DNA of 64,000 bases, from assembly GCA_032128875.1 (NCBI GenBank), contig JAVLKG010000008.1:64001-128000 (forward strand), given 5' to 3'. Made by a program: the position numbers and the translations under genes. Position 1 is the stretch's first letter. Every line of letters begins with the position of its first letter. Of the stretch, positions 6,891-15,385 are shown piece by piece. This DNA comes from Candidatus Melainabacteria bacterium 17Bon1m (GTDB taxonomy: Bacteria; Cyanobacteriota; Vampirovibrionia; Obscuribacterales; Obscuribacteraceae). The notes under the pieces were generated by a model. That model was not told the DNA's origin. It was given only the letters and a program-made list of their open reading frames with translations, and ran no database searches.

Positions 6891-7778
6891 ATGATGCCTA
6901 ACTCTAACCGCAGACGTTCGGGCTCGCAGAAAGCGACAATCGAAGCTGTGCTTGGTGCCGGCGGCATCAAGCTCTTCTGCCTGATCGGCTTTCTGAGAGC
7001 GCTCGAGAAAAAGCGTGTCAACGTCAGCATGTACACCGGTGCATCGGCTGGTTCGCTGGCGGGTCTCTTCTACACCAACGGCTACGCGCCCAAGGAAATG
7101 CTGGATATCTTCCTCGAGGAAGACGTCCGCAACTTCGCTGTCCGCAACCCGTTAACGTTCCTCAACCCGCTCAACTACCTGTCCGGCGGCATCATCGACA
7201 TTCGGGAGTTTGTGCGTCGCCTGGTCGAAAAGTACGAGCTGAAGCCGCAGAAAAACCTGCGCATCCTCACCTACAACGTGCTGCGTCGCGAGCCGGTTCC
7301 CTTCGAAGGCACCAATTACGACGTCATCGATGTTGCGGCTGCGTCTTGCGCTGTTCCTCTCGTCATGAAGCCGGTTCTGCACTGGGGCGGTCAAGGCGAA
7401 GGGGAGAAGAGCAAGTTCGGGATCCTCATGGACGGCGGCATCCACGACATCAACCCGCACAAGTGGGCGAAGGGCAGGGCTGTCGTAGCCAATCTCGGCT
7501 TCGCAGATTCGCTGCCCGATGAGTGGCTGTCACCGCTCGACTGGTATTTCCACCTCATGGAGATGACCTGGTCGAGGGCTCTTAGCTGGTATTTCAAGAT
7601 TCCCGAAGGCGAGCACATCGTCATCGATGTCGCGCCGAAGAACGTGGCCGGCCTGACATTCGGGCTGTCCGCACGCACGTGCCGCGAGATGGAGGAGTAC
7701 TCCTACCAAGTCACGTGCCGTGCTCTGGACGATGAGATCGCCAAAGGTCTCATCCCAGTCAATCAGGGCGTTTCGTAA
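6891..7778 (+). CDS. Patatin-like phospholipase/esterase
   Basis: LGAGG, GASAG nucleophile, DGG; AGGAGG RBS. Confidence 0.85.
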   Translation: MMPNSNRRRSGSQKATIEAVLGAGGIKLFCLIGFLRALEKKRVNVSMYTGASAGSLAGLFYTNGYAPKEMLDIFLEEDVRNFAVRNPLTFLNPLNYLSGGIIDIREFVRRLVEKYELKPQKNLRILTYNVLRREPVPFEGTNYDVIDVAAASCAVPLVMKPVLHWGGQGEGEKSKFGILMDGGIHDINPHKWAKGRAVVANLGFADSLPDEWLSPLDWYFHLMEMTWSRALSWYFKIPEGEHIVIDVAPKNVAGLTFGLSARTCREMEEYSYQVTCRALDDEIAKGLIPVNQGVS

Positions 7779-8377: not shown

Positions 8378-8493
8378 TGCACAACGACTATGCCTGAGCC
8401 GACGCCCGGGCCTCGTGAAGAAGCTTGCCACAAGCCAGCTTCCATCGAGGTTCGGGTCGAGGCGAAGGCGCCAGAGAGAGCGAGAAAAATCTC

Positions 8494-8517
8494 GTAGGGG
8501 CGCATCGTATGCGCCCT
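8494..8517 (+). repeat. GTAG-headed REP-like palindrome
   Basis: GTAG-GGGCGCAT-CGT-ATGCGCCC-T. Confidence 0.7.
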
Positions 8518-8544
8518 GCCTCTCTCAAACTGGAAAGGCAGCTT

Positions 8545-9096
8545 ATGAAAACACATCTAGCAAACGTTCTGGACCTTGAATTGAGCTGCTATCCCGACGG
8601 AAAGTTTCCCGACGACGAGCGGCAAGAAATCATCGAGGTCGGCTTGACCACGGTCGATCTCCACAAGATGGAGATTGTCGCCGTGCGCAGCATCCCGGTG
8701 ATACCGACGATGTCCTCCATCAGCCCGTTTTGTGCTGAGCTGACCGGATGGACGCAAGCGGCGCTCAACAAGCAAGGTGTGCCCTTCGAAGAAGCGGTTC
8801 GCCGCCTCGTCGAAAAGCACGGTTCCAAAAACCGGCTGTTGGTCACGGATTCCGCTGGTGATCGCAAGTTCTTCGATTGGCAGTGTGCAATGTTCGGCAA
8901 GGCGTCGCCTTTCGGCGACTACGAGCAGAACGTCTCGGTGCTCTTCTCCATCTACACGGAAATCTTCCAGAACGTGTCTTTGGACGACAAGCTGGAAAAA
9001 CTCGGACTCAAGTTCGAGGGACGCCGGCACCGCGCCGACAGCGACTCAATGAACATCGCCCGGCTGCTCATCGAACTGAAGCGCCGCATGCGTTGA
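8545..9096 (+). CDS. DEDDh 3'-5' exonuclease (ERI-1/KapD-like)
   Basis: VLDLELSC, EIIEVG, LTG, HRADSD; start moved to ATG 8545. Confidence 0.85.
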   Translation: MKTHLANVLDLELSCYPDGKFPDDERQEIIEVGLTTVDLHKMEIVAVRSIPVIPTMSSISPFCAELTGWTQAALNKQGVPFEEAVRRLVEKHGSKNRLLVTDSAGDRKFFDWQCAMFGKASPFGDYEQNVSVLFSIYTEIFQNVSLDDKLEKLGLKFEGRRHRADSDSMNIARLLIELKRRMR

Positions 9097-9149
9097 AAAA
9101 CGCTCTGCGACGCAGCAGCAAACGAGGTCTCTTAATGACCAGTGAAAGA

Positions 9150-9197
9150 ACAGACTGTGCGGCATAAACAACCGCACAGTCTGTCATCTTTCTTTCT
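9150..9197 (+). terminator. Probable intrinsic terminator
   Basis: 13-bp stem ACAGACTGTGCGG/CCGCACAGTCTGT followed by pyrimidine tract. Confidence 0.6.
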
Positions 9198-9913
9198 CGT
9201 CCAGCCCAACTACTGCATATCATAAGGCACCAGATACGCCACCACACAAACAGCTATTTTTTGAAGTCAAAGGTGCGGCTGTACTTCGGATTGCTTTTCG
9301 ACCCAGCCACTGTGACGAACCTTGCGTTTCTACTGCGCATCGAAAGCGGTTGTAGGCGTTTTATTAGAGCTGCCGCCAGCTCGCGAAGGGATTAACAGCC
9401 TCTCACAAACGCGCTAGCCGTTGCGGTGCTGTTTAATGCACAGACCGATTTGGTCGCCGACCCGAGAACCTCACCCAGGCTGCGCTAGTGCTTCACAGCT
9501 TCAAATTTCGACGTACTTTCCCCCCTGCGCTCATTAGCGCAATTTCATTAAAAGCTACCCCAAAAGGAGGGTGGTCAAGAACTGAGAAGTACTACCACCA
9601 CTCATGATCGAGGTGTAGATCTGCTTATTTGGTTTTACTCTGACACTGACTTTTAGTCATACGGCTATTAGAGCTACCTAAGGTTGCTAAATGTCTTACG
9701 TAAGAGTTAGGGTCAAAGCACGTTTTATAAACACTCTTTCATTCCGGAAAAACCCAACCACTCTTCGTTTCAACTTTCATCCAACACCAATTCAGCCCTG
9801 CCAGTTCAGCTCTTTTGCTGTGGCGGGGTTTTCCGTCTCTTGTTGCAGCCCTCACTTAGAGCATTTTGACGCTCAGTTTGGGACCGCAACTACCAGACCT
9901 GAATGAGAACAAC

Positions 9914-10663
9914 ATGGCGAATCTACCCCTGACAGTTCGCTGGTACATGTTCGTGAATGACATCATTCGCGTCTATGCCAGATTGATCCTCAGGCGCCTC
10001 GACAAAATAGACTTCGGAGCTCTGCTCGGTGGACCCGGTTCAGGAAAAGGCACCCTTGGCGTTCGCCTCGGACCTCTCCTGCGACTGATTCTGCTCGGCA
10101 TGGGCGACGTTCTCAGGCGCGAGGATATCCAGAAAGAGTACGGGGACAGACTAGCTGCGATGAGCAAAGGCGGCTTGTTGCCCGACTCCCTGGTTCACGA
10201 AATTCTCGAGCGAGAGCTCACCAAGCCTGCATATGCTCGTGGCGCCATCTTCGATGGAATTCCGCGAACGCTGAGGCAAGCGCTTCTTCTGGAGCGTTCG
10301 CTCGCATGGCGGGGTCTTCGTTTGAACTGGGTGGTGCTGCTCGATATCGATGAAGAAGAGCTCGTGGAGCGACTGACGCATCGACGCACCTGTCCCAACC
10401 CCAATTGCCGCCGCACCTATCACCTCATCAGCAATCGTCCGAAAGTCGAGGGAATCTGCGATGAGTGCAAAACTCCGCTGATTCAGCGCAAGGATGACGT
10501 GCGTGAGGTGATTGTGGAGCGGCTTCGCAAATACCGGGAGGAAATCACTCCTCTCTGTAGCTTCTACAAGGCGCGCGGCGTTTTGTATGAAGTAAAGCCG
10601 GCCAAAGGGAGCACTCCGGAAGAAGTGTTCAACTTGGCCAAATCTGTCCTAACGAGCAACTAG
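9914..10663 (+). CDS. adk: Adenylate kinase family protein (divergent, Cys-type LID)
   Basis: GGPGSGKGT, GDVLR, DGIPRT, RRTCPNPNC...CDEC, QRKDD; start moved to ATG 9914. Confidence 0.85.
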   Translation: MANLPLTVRWYMFVNDIIRVYARLILRRLDKIDFGALLGGPGSGKGTLGVRLGPLLRLILLGMGDVLRREDIQKEYGDRLAAMSKGGLLPDSLVHEILERELTKPAYARGAIFDGIPRTLRQALLLERSLAWRGLRLNWVVLLDIDEEELVERLTHRRTCPNPNCRRTYHLISNRPKVEGICDECKTPLIQRKDDVREVIVERLRKYREEITPLCSFYKARGVLYEVKPAKGSTPEEVFNLAKSVLTSN

Positions 10664-10673
10664 GAGAAAGACC

Positions 10674-10895
10674 ATGGCTCGCACTTTCCATGTCCTCGCC
10701 GATGACGGCAGCATCGACAAGCGTGCAACCCGCGCTCGCCGCCTGCACGGACCCGGTGCCAAGCGCGTTTCCACGCGTCGCAGCACCATCTGGTCCAACA
10801 TCTCCGGCCTCGGTCCCGACGGCAAGGTGCGTCGCGCCAACGGCAGCATCGACCACGCGGCAACGCGTGAAGTCGAGCGCGGCTGGCACGACTAA
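10674..10895 (+). CDS. Small basic repeat protein 1 (2 DGSID-type motifs)
   Basis: AGGAG RBS overlapping the adk stop; FHVLADDGSIDKRATRARRLHG and NGSIDHAATRE. Confidence 0.8.
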   Translation: MARTFHVLADDGSIDKRATRARRLHGPGAKRVSTRRSTIWSNISGLGPDGKVRRANGSIDHAATREVERGWHD

Positions 10896-11195
10896 GCAGT
10901 GACTGGCGTCGAAGCGAAGGAGAAGGTTGCCCACCCGATCCCCGCTTCGGCGCGCAGCCTGCGGTTTGCTCAAAAATTTCGACGGTGAGTGCAGATACCT
11001 GGTTTGCACTTGCCCGGAAGACGCTGACTCTTGCGATGCCGGCAACGGCTCCACGCAGGTGGTCGGCGTATGTGGAGTACCGGTTCGCATGTTGCGTTCC
11101 GGGTTGGTTACAAAACCGACTAAGGGAGCCGCTTACAGGAAGCAGCTTACCTGGTCATGACAGCCCACTTGGGCGAAATGGAGAACTGTTATGAC
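10896..11195 (+). ncRNA. Candidate structured RNA, copy A
   Basis: Colinear with 11596-11990; helices 10906-16/10943-53, 10984-96/11002-14 (loop ACCTG) and 11154-63/11186-95; compensatory changes between copies. Confidence 0.65.
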
Positions 11196-11595
11196 GAACA
11201 TCAACACCACCAATGGCAGCAACGACCTCATCCCCGGCACCAACCTGACCTGGGCTGACGCCGCCGCGATGCACAAGGACTACCTGCGCGACCAGCGTTG
11301 CAAGGGTACCCGCCGCAGCCGCCGCACCCGCACGAACCGTTCGAGCAAGAACGACGGGTTCTACGTGCTGGCGGAGGACGGCAGCATCGACAAGCAGGCC
11401 ACCCGCGAGCGCCGCCTCTTCGGACGCGACGACCGTCAGGTGACCGTGCACCGTGCGCCGCAGGTCGACACGCTGACTTCCGATTGGGACGGGTCGTACT
11501 CGTTCCGCCCGGACGGCAGCATCGACAAGGTCGCCACCCGCGAGCGTCGCCTCTTCGGTGAGCCGGAGAGCTACCTCGCGAGCCTGCTGAACTAA
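11191..11595 (+). CDS. Small repeat protein 2 (2 DGSIDKxATRERRLFG motifs)
   Basis: GGAG RBS, codon bias, two motif copies, Arg-rich linker. Confidence 0.85.
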   Translation: MTNINTTNGSNDLIPGTNLTWADAAAMHKDYLRDQRCKGTRRSRRTRTNRSSKNDGFYVLAEDGSIDKQATRERRLFGRDDRQVTVHRAPQVDTLTSDWDGSYSFRPDGSIDKVATRERRLFGEPESYLASLLN

Positions 11596-11990
11596 GCAAG
11601 TGAAGTTAGCACCGGAGCGTTGGAAGGGCTGCCCGCCTGACCGCGCTCCGGTGCGCTTCTTGCTGTTCGCCCCAGAATTCACGGCAGAGCATTGACGCGC
11701 ATCAGCGCTCGGCTTTGCCCAAAGAGTTTCGAAGCACAAGCAGCTACCTGAGCTGTGCGTGCCCGGAAACGCTGATAGCGGAGATGCCTGCAGCTCTTCG
11801 CTCCAGCGTTTGCAGCGTCACCGGGTGGTGGCGTTGCAAAACCATGACGTGGATGTTTCTGCGTTGTGGAAAGCCGGTTCACTTGTTGTGAGCCGGTTTA
11901 TTTGGTGAACCCGACTAAGGGAGACGCACTCAGGATGCGCCTTACCTGGTCATGACAGCCCACTTGGGCACATGGAGAAACTGTTATGAC
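11596..11990 (+). ncRNA. Candidate structured RNA, copy B
   Basis: Helices 11609-19/11644-54, 11740-45/11751-56 (loop ACCTG) and 11949-58/11981-90; 29 nt identical to copy A (11941-69 = 11146-74). Confidence 0.65.
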
Positions 11991-12495
11991 GAACATCGAA
12001 AACACCACTGGCAACAGCAGCATCAGCGGCGCCGAGCACAAGCACTGGCTCCGTGAACTGCGCATCGATCGCAGCCTCGGTCTCGACCGCGGTGTGCGCA
12101 ACGGCAGCAAGAAGCGTCGGAACAACGAGGCGACTCGTCCGTTCCACGTCCTGGCCGCCGACGGCAGCATCGACAAGCGCGCCACCCGCGAACGCCGCCT
12201 CTTCGGACCGGACGCCACCCCCGTGGTCACCTCCGGCTCGGACGAGAACATCGGCGCCGACTGGGATGGCCGCTACGTCCTGAAGGACGACGGCTCCATC
12301 GACAAGCAGGCCACGCGCGAGCGTCGGCTGTTCGGTGAGCCCGAAGACCTGTACGGCCGTAACGCTGCCGACTACTTCTTCGGCGACGAAGAGGGCGATG
12401 CCGACAGCAGCTTCCACGTCATCGACGAGGACGGCTGCATCGACAAGCAGGCCACGCGCGAGCGCCGGCTGTTCGGTTCCAGCCTCTGGAACTGA
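11986..12495 (+). CDS. Small repeat protein 3 (3 DG(S/C)IDKxATRERRLFG motifs)
   Basis: GGAG RBS, same MTNI start as protein 2, three motif copies. Confidence 0.85.
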   Translation: MTNIENTTGNSSISGAEHKHWLRELRIDRSLGLDRGVRNGSKKRRNNEATRPFHVLAADGSIDKRATRERRLFGPDATPVVTSGSDENIGADWDGRYVLKDDGSIDKQATRERRLFGEPEDLYGRNAADYFFGDEEGDADSSFHVIDEDGCIDKQATRERRLFGSSLWN

Positions 12496-12567
12496 TACCT
12501 GAAGGGCGTCGGCACTCGCGGACTTGATGCGCAAACGCATTAAGCTCTGCGAGCACCGGCGCTGGTA
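12496..12567 (+). other. Long imperfect hairpin closing the repeat-protein array
   Basis: TACC/GGTA, GGCGTCGG/CCGGCGCT, CTCGCGGA/TCTGCGAG, CTTGATGCG-CAAA-CGCATTAAG. Confidence 0.55.
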
Positions 12568-12752
12568 GCCTTGAAAGGCGAGGGTCCTTCCCCTCGTCTT
12601 TCATTTTTAGGGCATTACCTACTGTATGCCATCGTAATTTGAGCAAGAAAAAGAAGCAGGCGACCTGTCCGAGCATTTTCAGCTCGGGACAAATCGCCCA
12701 CTTCAAGACCATTCTCGCTAGTCGTTGTTACGACTAACGGGAATGCAAGGGA

Positions 12753-13334
12753 TTACTTGCGCTTCTGCGTGCGAGGCTTGTCGTCGAAACACGCAGTGCA
12801 CACCTTGGTGCTCGGCTTCAGCCCGCCCAGGATCTTCGCCTCATCTTGCACTCGGCAGAGAATCTGAATCTCTTCGAGCTTGAGGCTGTCACCCTCCAGC
12901 TGCGCGAAGACGTGGGCGCGACAGGCAAGCGCGCGAACGAGTTCGCCGATGTCACCGCTGAACTGCTCGCCCGTGAGCATCCGTGCGATCTTGCGGCATT
13001 CCTGTTTTGCGGCTTGCTTGAGCGCAAGAGAAAAAATACCGCAGGCCACCCGAATATCTCGCCAGGAAGATTTCGGGAAGCCGGCGAAGATCAGCTCGGC
13101 ACGCGCGGCGACGGTATTCTCCGGAGGCGACACACGTTCGTCTGCGCCCGCCGGGAGCATGTTGATCGCGTCATACAACGGGCCCAGACCGGCACGCGCA
13201 TTGAGCACGACGAAAAGATCGATCTTGTCGGGGTCGAACTCGTGTTCGTGAAAAACGCTCAGACAGGGAATCACCTTGATTTCGACGGACGAGCGAAGAG
13301 CAGCGATTGAAGCGGGTTTCTGATTGTCAGTCAT
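12753..13334 (-). CDS. Hypothetical protein
   Basis: 193-aa ORF with AGGAG RBS; no recognised motif. Confidence 0.65.
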   Translation of the reverse strand: MTDNQKPASIAALRSSVEIKVIPCLSVFHEHEFDPDKIDLFVVLNARAGLGPLYDAINMLPAGADERVSPPENTVAARAELIFAGFPKSSWRDIRVACGIFSLALKQAAKQECRKIARMLTGEQFSGDIGELVRALACRAHVFAQLEGDSLKLEEIQILCRVQDEAKILGGLKPSTKVCTACFDDKPRTQKRK

Positions 13335-13792
13335 GACTTTCTCCTATTCTCGTGACTCGTTTCACAGCCGGAACTGCGGTTGGGAAGCTAGAAAAAGCGT
13401 TGCAAATGGAGCTTGCGGGTGCTGCGAAAAAATTCCGGTCGGTGAAAACGAGATGTGGCAAAACCCTATGAAATCGGGCTGGGAAAGCGCAATCGAACCA
13501 AAGTATGATTGCCGATCTCGCGCTAAGTCGACCGCGATAAATGACTGGTTGCTCATGCACTGGCGAACGAACTTCAATGCTCAAAGACCGCACTGCGCCA
13601 GCCCCGGTTCTCGACAAGAGCTAACTGCAACCCTTGAAGACCAATACTTTGGGACTATGATGCAAGCTGCGCCATAATACCCAGGTATGATTTCGCCGCG
13701 CGAAGCTTTTCGCAAGTTAGCGCCAGCTCTTGACGGGCATGCAAAACCCGTCTTGCCTCGATTTTCTATTAGAATGGCTTTGTGTGGAAGGA

Positions 13793-15385
13793 ATGGACGC
13801 CGTGCGCGAACATCAGATCGTCATCAGCCTCAAACCTGAGCAGTTTCAGGAAGTGCAAAAACAAGCTCGGGCAGCTGGAGCTCAGTCTGTTGGCGCCTTC
13901 GTGCGGCAAAATCTGCTCAACTTCCTGGGATTGGAAGAATCGATCAACGCCGGTAAAGCCTCTCAAATGTCTCCCTCTGTCCAAGCTGACCCGGACTGGC
14001 GGTTTATCGCCGGAGAATTGCGCCGCCTGCACCGCGAATTGAAAGTCTTGTCCAGTGAGGCAACTGTATCGAACACCCTGGTGACCGACATAGCCGGTTC
14101 GAACAGTTCGATCAGTGGTCCTACCACTGCGACCGGAGGTCCTCTTCTGGCTTCCACAGTGGCTTTGAGCGAACCTTACAGAGAGCCGGTGCCGGAATAC
14201 AGCCAGCCGGCACAGCATGAAAACTTCCTTACAGATGGCGCGCCGATAGCTGTCGATGACTATTCGGACAATCTCGACGATTCGCTCATTCTTCCCCCAG
14301 CGCATGGTATCACCGGCGGCGGAACGACTCCTTTCTTCCAGACTCCCACGATGCCCAGTCGATCGCCTTTCGGCATGCCGATGTCTTCAGGACTTCCACT
14401 TTCATCGCCTTTCTCGCAGCATACGTTCATGCCGAATATCTCTCCTCTGCCGAGCGATTTGGGCATAGCGGCTCAAGCCCCGGCAAAGCAAGAGTTCACC
14501 GTCGACGAAGGAGATCCGGTCGAAACGACGAAGATTGAGGCAAAACCACAGCAGCCGGCGGAAACGCAACCAATAGCGCAACCCACAGCAACTGAGACCG
14601 CTGCAGCCACGCCCCAAACATCAGCCCAGAGCGCCTCTCAGCTAATAACTCAACCGACATCGCAAGCTGCGTTTCAAACCGCATCTCAAGACCCTCAAGT
14701 TACACAAGCTGCGCAACCCGTTTCACAACCAGACCAACGACCTGCAGCAGCAGCCCAGCTTCCTCCTGCAAATGCTCCCCAGCAACCTCCGGCAGTTCAG
14801 CAACCTGTTGCCCCACCGCAAGCAGCAGCACCTGTACAACCGGAAGCGCCGACTATCACACCTGTGCAAACTCGTTCACAGATTGCTTCTCAAACTCCAG
14901 CTGAGCAGCCAGGAGCATTCGCGCCACAGAAAGACGACATGGAAGTTCTTGCAGACAGAGCGTTTGCAATTTCACCAAGACTTGGCGCAATTGAGCCGGA
15001 AGTTACACTGCAACCGGCACAAAGCCGAAGCTTCGCCGACACTCTTGAAGAATTGCTCGACGCCGGCCTAATCAACCAGGTTTTGTCTCAGACCGAAGTT
15101 GAAGAGGACAATCCTTACGCCGGAGAAGTTGAAGCACCTCCGGAGGATGACCTGGTTCAGGTAATCGTTCAGGAAGTCGACGTACCCTCGCCCGACGCCA
15201 CAGATAGCAAAAACGCCGAAGAGTCCGATAACACGAGCAATAGCGAGCCTGAGGACAGTCAGAATGATCCGCCTGCCGCGATTCAACATGACCCTCCGCC
15301 ACCGCCTCGCCCAATTGGCGGCGCCGATCAATCTGGCGAAGACGAGCCACCCAAGCCACCTCCGCGCCGCAGAAAGTTGATGTAA
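13793..15385 (+). CDS. Hypothetical protein: RHH/MobC-like N-terminus and long Pro/Gln/Ala/acidic disordered region
   Basis: HQIVISLKPEQFQEVQKQARAAGAQSVGAFVRQNLL; low-complexity remainder; start moved to ATG 13793. Confidence 0.75.
   Translation: MDAVREHQIVISLKPEQFQEVQKQARAAGAQSVGAFVRQNLLNFLGLEESINAGKASQMSPSVQADPDWRFIAGELRRLHRELKVLSSEATVSNTLVTDIAGSNSSISGPTTATGGPLLASTVALSEPYREPVPEYSQPAQHENFLTDGAPIAVDDYSDNLDDSLILPPAHGITGGGTTPFFQTPTMPSRSPFGMPMSSGLPLSSPFSQHTFMPNISPLPSDLGIAAQAPAKQEFTVDEGDPVETTKIEAKPQQPAETQPIAQPTATETAAATPQTSAQSASQLITQPTSQAAFQTASQDPQVTQAAQPVSQPDQRPAAAAQLPPANAPQQPPAVQQPVAPPQAAAPVQPEAPTITPVQTRSQIASQTPAEQPGAFAPQKDDMEVLADRAFAISPRLGAIEPEVTLQPAQSRSFADTLEELLDAGLINQVLSQTEVEEDNPYAGEVEAPPEDDLVQVIVQEVDVPSPDATDSKNAEESDNTSNSEPEDSQNDPPAAIQHDPPPPPRPIGGADQSGEDEPPKPPPRRRKLM

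Follow-up and report, generated by a model that had tools for sequence, protein, structure and literature searches.

A Folded Leader RNA with Homology to the 3′ End of an Adenylate Kinase Gene: A Candidate Translational Lock in an Uncultured Obscuribacterales Genus

Protein-binding translational operators are well established in gene leaders, with ribosomal-protein leaders and the phage coat-protein operator as examples. In translational coupling by RNA unfolding, which acts for instance between the MS2 coat and lysis genes and in Escherichia coli rpmI-rplT, an inhibitory helix connects the last part of one reading frame with the beginning of the gene that follows it, and the terminating ribosome opens this helix, as set out in a review (PMC12548453). 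Ribosome termination structures (RTS), as presented in another report (PMC7518266), are stable hairpins located just past stop codons. Here we describe two intergenic spacers, called A and B, within a 64,000-nucleotide stretch of Candidatus Melainabacteria bacterium 17Bon1m (contig JAVLKG010000008.1, positions 64,001 to 128,000; hereafter the window) that show likenesses to each of these systems. Alignments indicate that both spacers descend from the 3′ end of adk2, a gene for a second adenylate-kinase paralog. We propose, with a probability that we place at roughly one half, that the leaders within these spacers are cis-acting translational locks joined to a folded scaffold, and that they were kept after the adk2 fragment stopped coding for protein.

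The spacers separate three small genes that form a series of tandem paralogs downstream of adk2. Spacer A comprises positions 10896-11190, between genes 1 and 2, whereas spacer B comprises positions 11596-11985, between genes 2 and 3. Each spacer can be read as the post-stop hairpin of the preceding small gene (H1) followed by a leader of ~230-320 nt, which would be the noncoding descendant of the adk2 3′ region. The coding features are as follows:

9866 to 10663, plus strand: adk2, the second adenylate-kinase paralog, a 265-aa open reading frame (ORF) as listed, with a provisional start (Pfam ADK 1.3e-29, ADK_lid 1e-13)
10396 to 10663, plus strand: 3′ part of adk2, beginning at the LID zinc knuckle and ending with the stop codon, the apparent source sequence of the leaders (DNA alignment A4)
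10674 to 10895, plus strand: small gene 1, 73 aa, located 10 nt past the adk2 stop and lacking the start-codon helix (P5) described below
11191 to 11595, plus strand: small gene 2, 134 aa, with two DGSIDKxATRERRLFG repeats
11986 to 12495, plus strand: small gene 3, 169 aa, with three DGSIDKxATRERRLFG repeats

This repeat of ~16 residues occurs in 2, 2 and 3 copies in small proteins 1-3, respectively. All three proteins are arginine-rich and hydrophilic; none matches a Pfam or NCBIfam family, and the ESM Atlas returned no usable match.

An original prediction, made from the letters of the window alone, had described the two spacers as copies of one RNA whose helices are preserved by compensatory changes. 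All of the helix and loop strings that it quoted are found where it had placed them. The spacers are indeed homologous (76% mean column identity on the alignment), and copy B, for which additional hairpins had been reported, has two large insertions. Spacer A has a minimum free energy (MFE) of -140.2 kcal/mol (z -6.38) and spacer B one of -198.2 kcal/mol (z -9.14), and in neither case were any of 100 dinucleotide shuffles as good. Coding sequence of the same operon, sampled as three 286-nt controls, gave z scores of -0.86, -0.98 and -0.91. The plus strand, which had been favored on the basis of G-U pairs, folds more stably than the minus strand in 15 of 16 leaders, with a mean difference of 19.9 kcal/mol.

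Of 12 other genomes belonging to the same genus, 8 gave BLAST matches related to the spacers; none of 24 genomes from other genera of the family, and none of 24 from outside the family, did so. An exact scan for the invariant motif described below identified 8 contigs among one genome per GTDB species, all titled Melainabacteria, Obscuribacterales or Cyanobacteria bacterium, along with 10 metagenome contigs. After filtering, the window and loci L001-L043 provided 23 distinct 3′ modules. These copies, which are related and in part paralogous, derive from nine genomes of one uncultured Obscuribacterales genus and from metagenome contigs, and the distribution of the element covers this genus plus a sister genus. 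The arrays contain one to three units per genome. Just the two spacers match within the 7.55-Mb genome that includes the window, which rules out dispersed palindromic repeats such as repetitive extragenic palindromic (REP) sequences, miniature inverted-repeat transposable elements (MITEs) or integron attC sites. Comparison of positions 9000-14000 with 4227 Rfam families by using cmscan yielded nothing relevant at E values up to 10, and only chance-level matches to microRNA and small RNA families were returned. Limited literature searches turned up no published description of the element, and nothing specific on bacterial small RNAs arising from pseudogenes. A covariance-model match in one further genome (G100, 28.7 bits) is not adjacent to an adk gene and was treated as a false positive.

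The conserved part of each leader is organized around three helices, H2, H3 and H4, with additional hairpins of variable number:

10977 to 11019, plus strand: H2 of leader A, with an outer UUUCG/CGGAA helix, a 13-bp inner stem and the loop ACCUG at 10997-11001
11021 to 11069, plus strand: H2b of leader A, a variable-length hairpin whose base, ACGCUG/(C)GGCGU, is conserved
11080 to 11102, plus strand: H3 of leader A, from fold and covariation
11123 to 11152, plus strand: H4 of leader A, with the loop NNCAGGA
11675 to 11729, plus strand: inserted hairpin that only copy B and its orthologues have, with no repeats at other places in the genome
11730 to 11765, plus strand: H2 of leader B, with the loop ACCUG at 11746-11750
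11767 to 11869, plus strand: H2b, H2c and H2d of leader B, each a near-perfect hairpin, which together span the part of the adk2 homology missing from leader A
11871 to 11899, plus strand: H3 of leader B, from fold and covariation
11918 to 11947, plus strand: H4 of leader B, from fold and covariation

The proposed compensation was confirmed and extended to 23 copies. From the 23 3′ modules (alignment A2), RNAalifold produced four helices, which are H3, H4, eight pairs of P5, and a nested four-pair hairpin. Double changes are present in 13 of the 32 pairs, compared to 7.3 +/- 1.2 in shuffled alignments (0 of 500 reach 13). Of the cells, 95.6% are paired, versus 33-41% when the partners are slid by 1-3 columns. 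The double changes fall in 6 of 10 pairs of H3 and 7 of 10 pairs of H4; pairing in both helices is maintained through compensated change. For H2, which had been proposed to carry the same ACCTG loop on different stems in the two copies, an alignment of 22 distinct rows has double changes in 12 of 16 pairs (8.3 +/- 1.3 when shuffled; 3 of 500 reach 12), a covariation score of 0.444 (0.233 when shuffled; 0 of 500) and an inner stem that is 91% paired. Because this alignment is model-fitted, these values lean toward the model; on an unfitted MAFFT alignment, 8 of 11 pairs have double changes.

While these stems drift, certain stretches beside them do not change at all. The sequences CCUG in the H2 loop, CAGGA in the H4 loop, the 17-mer CCUGGUCAUGACAGCCC, and AACUGUUAUGA are each invariant in 23 of 23 copies, as is GGAG at the Shine–Dalgarno (SD) sequence of the downstream gene. 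The two loops could form a four-pair loop-loop contact between CCUG and CAGG, both of which are invariant, and a candidate contact extended by one pair fits 10 of 16 copies. The distance and content between conserved modules varies by up to ~90 nt.

The most strictly conserved structure is one that the original prediction overlooked. A 29-nt block is identical in the two spacers (11146-11174 in A and 11941-11969 in B), and it constitutes the 5′ half of an invariant helix, P5, in which the block pairs with the downstream gene's start codon:

11154 to 11195, plus strand: P5 lock of leader A, with the AUG at 11191-11193, an inner GCCC/GGGC hairpin at 11163-11174, and the SD sequence GGAG (11180-11183) unpaired
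11949 to 11990, plus strand: P5 lock of leader B, with the AUG at 11986-11988 and the SD sequence (11974-11977) unpaired; -16.3 kcal/mol

Specifically, GUCAUGACA (11154-11162; 11949-11957) pairs with UGUUAUGAC (11187-11195; 11982-11990), and this second strand contains the AUG of the small gene. The SD sequence lies unpaired in a 12-nt internal loop, and the GCCC-loop-GGGC hairpin is nested inside the helix. The entire module of 9 + 4 pairs has a stability of -16.3 kcal/mol in both window copies. All 12 of 12 pairs of P5 and its nested hairpin are identical in 23 of 23 copies, with only the tetraloop varying; in one genome (G012), the nested GCCC hairpin has been deleted and P5 has been kept. 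These characteristics do not fit an RNA thermometer, for which a weak, mismatched helix that covers the SD sequence and AUG and melts at physiological temperatures would be expected rather than 9 + 4 pairs with an unpaired SD sequence. A leader controlled by CsrA/RsmA was likewise rejected. Although GGA is present in the H4 loop and at the SD sequence, CsrA (PF02599) was not found in the window genome (G000, 93% complete), whereas the control search was positive in 3 named genomes.

The origin of the leaders is revealed by adk2 itself. One “leader” with an intact reading frame, from genome G001, is the true C-terminus of the adk2 gene of that genome (a 308-codon open frame, 64% identical to the adk2 of the window), the stop codon of which is located just before the SD sequence of a small gene. 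Alignment A4 shows spacers A and B to be collinear with the 3′ end of adk2, both that of the window and that of G001, over the span between the LID zinc knuckle and the stop codon. The H2 loop ACCUG aligns with the Y-H-L codons of the adk2 LID, H4 with the KGSTP(E/Q)EVF codons, and the invariant 17-mer with N-L-V-M-T-A. When the 303-nt G001 adk2 3′ end was compared with the 64-kb window, it matched spacer B at 11747-11971 (E 3.9e-11) and spacer A at 11074-11176 (E 1.6e-6). A profile of seven adk2 ends of the genus, with G001 left out, matched spacer B with an E value of 0.0025 and spacer A with E values of 0.036 and 0.17, all collinear. In the opposite direction, a covariance model of the leader 3′ module (R1) matches the adk2 end of the window at 10551-10685 (33.9 bits, E 2e-9), those of G002, G003, G007, G008 and G010 at 31-38 bits, and those of the genus g22 at 44-48 bits. 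Likeness to adk2 at the protein level has been lost (BLASTP E 1.2 for the leader-A ORF at 10927-11160). Judged from these alignments, it is the final ~270 nt of adk2 that gave rise to the spacers, with a homology that is visible only at the DNA and RNA level. The duplicated unit therefore consisted of the ~270 nt at the adk2 3′ end, the small gene and the post-stop hairpin H1.

Some genomes retain P5 within adk2. Of its pairs, 8 of 8 form in adk2 of G001, 7 of 8 in two adk2 genes of g22, and only 1-4 of 8 in the other seven. In G001 and g22, the adk2 stop codon lies between the P5 inner hairpin and the SD sequence, such that the 5′ strand of P5 is formed by the last adk2 codons. This anatomy is what would be expected for translational coupling by RNA unfolding. 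Coding, half-way and noncoding states of the same sequence survive in related genomes.

This line of descent also bears on the regulatory role that had been suggested for the spacers. The original prediction named a multi-domain cis-regulatory RNA or noncoding RNA, with adenine nucleotides as possible ligands given the adk gene upstream. The first part holds, in that each spacer carries a multi-helix, structured plus-strand RNA in cis before a gene. The second is not supported: the link to adk is one of descent, with the spacers copied from the adk2 3′ end, and nothing in this analysis points to a riboswitch. A riboswitch would use H2-H4 as an aptamer for a small molecule and P5 as the expression platform. 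Like translational riboswitches, the leaders are multi-helix, covarying cis elements in which invariant unpaired stretches join the helices, a loop-loop contact is possible, and a helix covers the initiation region to occlude the start codon. However, no Rfam class is matched, and we saw no alternative structure that is mutually exclusive with P5 in MFE or centroid folds or by inspection, although the search was not systematic. Furthermore, a variation of up to ~90 nt between modules would be atypical of aptamer cores, the element does not extend beyond one genus, and the downstream genes encode small hydrophilic proteins of no known family, without any theme of transport or metabolism. Descent rather than ligand logic explains the adk neighborhood. 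We consider a riboswitch improbable.

Folding at the 3′ end of adk2 is not restricted to the noncoding copies. The adk2 3′ end of the window (10400-10685) has a z score of -4.56, versus -0.86 and -0.98 in the remainder of adk2, and the G001 adk2 3′ end has a z score of -4.32 (all from the shuffle tool). With 60 shuffles each, the 3′ 286 nt score between -2.5 and -5.65 in 7 of 7 adk2 genes of the genus that were scored, and between -1.5 and -5.35 at 14 adk2 loci of other genera; two standard adk genes gave -0.3 and -1.2. Single-sequence folds place hairpins at the codon positions of H3 and H4 in 11 of 11 anchored adk2 ends from four genera, despite quite different sequences (five further adk2 ends lacking the anchor motif were left unfolded). 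Five of the 11 also have a terminal hairpin of the GCCC/GGGC type, which takes the form GCCG/CGGC in one genus and that of a three-pair GCC/GGC stem in another. For H4, 89.1% of cells are paired in 12 real adk2 frames from 4 genera, versus 78.7 +/- 1.6% when shuffled and 21-43% when slid, and the covariation score is 0.315 versus 0.140. RNAalifold did not recover H3 from the real adk2 ends, among which a 3-nt indel shifts the register, and so H3 in adk2 is represented by single-sequence folds and by covariance-model alignments, which are produced by fitting to the model. The fold arose earlier than the duplication.

If the spacers are adk2 fragments, and if real adk2 3′ ends are already structured and carry H3 and H4, then the leaders might simply be decaying relics. 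According to this explanation, they would be functionless pseudogene pieces, generated by recent duplication or gene conversion, whose hairpins are inherited. Several observations make this very improbable. Between the window genome and G008, orthologous spacers have 0.126 (A) and 0.162 (B) differences per aligned site, about half the 0.21-0.31 differences observed at sites of 4-fold degeneracy in the three adjacent small genes. The spacers thus evolve more slowly than synonymous sites. In addition, orthologous leaders are more alike than paralogous ones (e.g., 93% vs 65% over columns 1-92), which indicates that the copies are old, have not been homogenized, and arose by a duplication that predates the species splits. 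Finally, the reading frame has been destroyed, yet pairing has improved (z -6.4 and -9.1, compared to about -4.5 in the gene), and double changes keep the pairs. Among paralogous leaders, mean identity remains at 90% in columns 93-140 and falls to 67% in columns 1-92. Separately, G007 (L007) has a single unit in which an A-like 3′ module precedes a gene-3-type ORF, and metagenome contig L034 carries an A-like 3′ module identical to that of G007 plus a second, B-like unit. This arrangement suggests unit loss or recombination between units.

The 5′ portion of each spacer has a different history. H1, which had been included as a part of the multi-helix element, is instead the post-stop hairpin of the preceding small gene:

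10896 to 10962, plus strand: H1-A, a long, stable hairpin from the stop codon of gene 1, with arms at 10906-16/10943-53 and no U tract
11596 to 11663, plus strand: H1-B, the post-stop hairpin of gene 2, with arms at 11609-19/11644-54
12496 to 12567, plus strand: post-stop hairpin of gene 3, following the last gene of the array and conserved in 6 genomes

In 19 of 19 small genes examined, the stop codon is followed at a distance of 0-12 nt by the beginning of a very stable hairpin (-29 to -50 kcal/mol within 85 nt); the survey took in the final gene of every array, and one additional locus was too short to be used. These hairpins resemble the RTS of PMC7518266 in their position immediately past the stop codon and in the lack of a U tract, and they differ in being much longer and more stable than generic RTS. 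Intrinsic termination by H1 was rejected, since H1-A was not called as a terminator and only a weak-tailed, 5-bp sub-stem of H1-B was. The last-gene hairpin at 12496-12567 is of a distinct type with a nested stem, GACUUGAUGCG...CGCAUUAAGCUC, that is found in the window genome and in G008, G007, G003, G002 and G004.

The presence of such a hairpin behind every small gene raises the possibility that compactness is all that has been selected. An untranslated adk2 fragment might be folded to protect a long intercistronic stretch from endonucleases or exonucleases and to insulate the cistrons from each other, and P5 might be only one more hairpin. Stems that vary freely provided that they remain paired, extra hairpins that come and go between copies, and the almost wall-to-wall perfect hairpins of copy B (z -9.1) are all consistent with this explanation. 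What it leaves unexplained is the 23 of 23 invariance of CCUG, CAGGA, CCUGGUCAUGACAGCCC and AACUGUUAUGA beside the drifting stems, and it fails to account for why the sole invariant helix holds the start codon. Protection from Rho is also an unlikely motive, because a search of the genome (93% complete) did not find an RNA-binding domain of Rho. On balance, we regard compactness by itself as an unlikely explanation.

We therefore return to the proposal that the leaders are translational locks, which follows from the fact that P5 is kept letter for letter with no translation through the leader. It builds on the adk2 homology, the covarying helices, a P5 that does not vary, the lack of any conserved upstream ORF, and slower-than-synonymous evolution, each of which the analyses show. 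P5 probably represses translation, as it would pair the start and first codons of the small gene with sequence ~30 nt upstream, leaving the SD sequence exposed. In the ancestral arrangement, presumably the one still present in G001 and in the sister genus, the ribosome terminating on adk2 would melt P5 and thereby license translation of the small gene. Tandem duplication of the adk2 3′ part, the small gene and H1 would then have carried P5, H2, H3 and H4 along. With no translation through the fragment in the duplicates, the frame could be lost, whereas the fold would have been kept and strengthened by selection. In this scheme, H2-H4 may serve as a conserved folded platform. The invariant loops (CCUG of H2 and CAGGA of H4), together with the CCUGG before P5, would be the points touched by the factor that opens the lock or keeps it closed. 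The contact partner would most likely be a protein, possibly the arginine-rich small proteins or the adk2 product.

A more specific version of this idea is that the leader is a sensor RNA born from adk2 coding sequence, either as an operator responsive to a protein (the small proteins or the adk2 product) or as a ligand-responsive switch. We advance this only tentatively. If true, then the intermediates in the emergence of such a sensor would be visible, with sister lineages using the helices inside the adk2 frame, and with duplicates having shed the frame and sharpened the fold.

Several points weigh against the assignment of these leaders as locks. Gene 1, which is located directly behind the real adk2, has no P5 (its initiation region folds with -7.1 kcal/mol, z 0.16). 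With the SD sequence exposed, the lock may be leaky, and H2-H4 might serve only RNA stability. No opener of P5 was found among a conserved upstream ORF, alternative pairing (by inspection), CsrA and complementary sites. Frames that end at the TGA inside P5 or at the ATGA range from 15 to 249 codons and have no common start, such that no conserved ORF runs through the leaders. A search for trans-acting complements of the 17-mer gave 10 genome sites at up to 3 mismatches, versus 9 for a reversed control. All copies come from one genus plus its sister genus, and the comparisons among them are not independent. The transcript records are of little help to the proposal. In RNA-labelled runs X2-X4, which possibly derive from the source sample, the whole 3.6-kb stretch lies in single contigs of 7151-7175 nt; these libraries have longest contigs of 148-182 kb and so evidently contain DNA, and they have no bearing on transcripts. 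An independent metatranscriptome (X17) contains six short contigs of a relative with 90-99% likeness, which cover positions 9697-9844, 10473-10881, 11080-11353, 11364-11423, 12005-12898 and 12510-12770; the gaps between them prove nothing.

A further point against the lock concerns P5 itself. Because P5 never varies, covariation cannot support it, and its invariance could equally reflect sequence-specific recognition or a site that functions at the DNA level. Indeed, GTCATGAC within the invariant block is a perfect 8-bp palindrome (11154-11161; 11949-11956). On an mRNA carrying both leaders, this palindrome would also permit the P5 5′ strands of leaders A and B to pair with each other. The palindrome lies within the invariant 17-mer and has a near-repeat, GTTATGAC, 33 nt downstream. 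One might therefore envision an operator that a dimeric DNA-binding protein recognizes, or a site for recombination that drives duplication in the manner of cassettes, given that tandem arrays of 1-3 units differ between genomes. Against such a signal, a scan of positions 9500-13000 for sigma-70-like promoters found 0, where 0.7 were expected. The motif occurs elsewhere in the genome at the chance level given by the 10 and 9 sites noted above, and the homology to adk2 accounts for the spacers without a mobile element. Moreover, the G-U pairs and the strand asymmetry in 15 of 16 leaders point to RNA. A DNA-level signal is the explanation to which we assign the least credence. No rival accounts as well as a lock does for stems that drift but are compensated, combined with loops and a start-codon helix that are letter-perfect.

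In its mechanism class, as a start-codon-occluding leader or coupling hairpin, the proposed lock is already known. Protein-binding operators share with these RNAs a structured leader and invariant hairpin loops beside a sequestered start, and the products here are small and arginine-rich. The differences are that this leader family is absent from Rfam, and that its origin from coding sequence is documented. As compared to coupling by RNA unfolding, in the form that PMC12548453 describes, P5 is similar in that it pairs the AUG and the bases beside it in 23 of 23 copies and in that its 5′ strand comprises the last adk2 codons in G001 and g22. However, the upstream partner in the spacers of the window is no longer translated, with no conserved ORF across the leaders, and the lock is uncoupled from its key and preceded by three further conserved hairpins. 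The novelty lies in this particular multi-helix element and in its documented origin from coding sequence, of which coding and noncoding states exist side by side.

The remainder of the locus is consistent with an operon. One additional feature lies 3′ of the array:

12572 to 12608, plus strand: canonical intrinsic terminator, a 13-bp stem followed by T5, 3′ of gene 3 (12572-12603 in the narrower of two delimitations)

This terminator likely marks the operon end, and the small genes are probably cotranscribed with adk2. Upstream on the same strand lie a gene for a patatin-like phospholipase (6891-7778) and another for an RNase T-family exonuclease (8425-9096). A standard adk of ~220 aa is located on another contig of the same assembly (G000:C10:136377-136730), and many genomes of the family carry adk2 (about 260-300 aa) in addition to a standard ~220-aa adk. 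At 15 of 30 adk loci fetched, an ORF for a hydrophilic protein of 73-153 aa starts between -1 and +17 nt from the adk2 stop. None of these ORFs has a Pfam family. Those in several genera (L078-L096) contain motifs such as DRxLARHGD or RENRLFG, and such shared motifs suggest that the ORFs behind adk2 may form one family. Together, adk2 and the small ORF look like a conserved, tightly coupled gene pair.

To our knowledge, almost nothing has been reported regarding RNA-level control in the Vampirovibrionia, the uncultured, nonphotosynthetic relatives of cyanobacteria. The leaders represent an undescribed structured RNA from this group that lacks an Rfam family. They also provide an unusually clean example of how a cis-acting RNA can originate, wherein a structured coding stretch was duplicated with its downstream gene, after which coding was lost and folding was kept. 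Finally, the locus draws attention to a pair, conserved across several genera, of an adk paralog and a small-protein family, whose tight coupling suggests a shared function.

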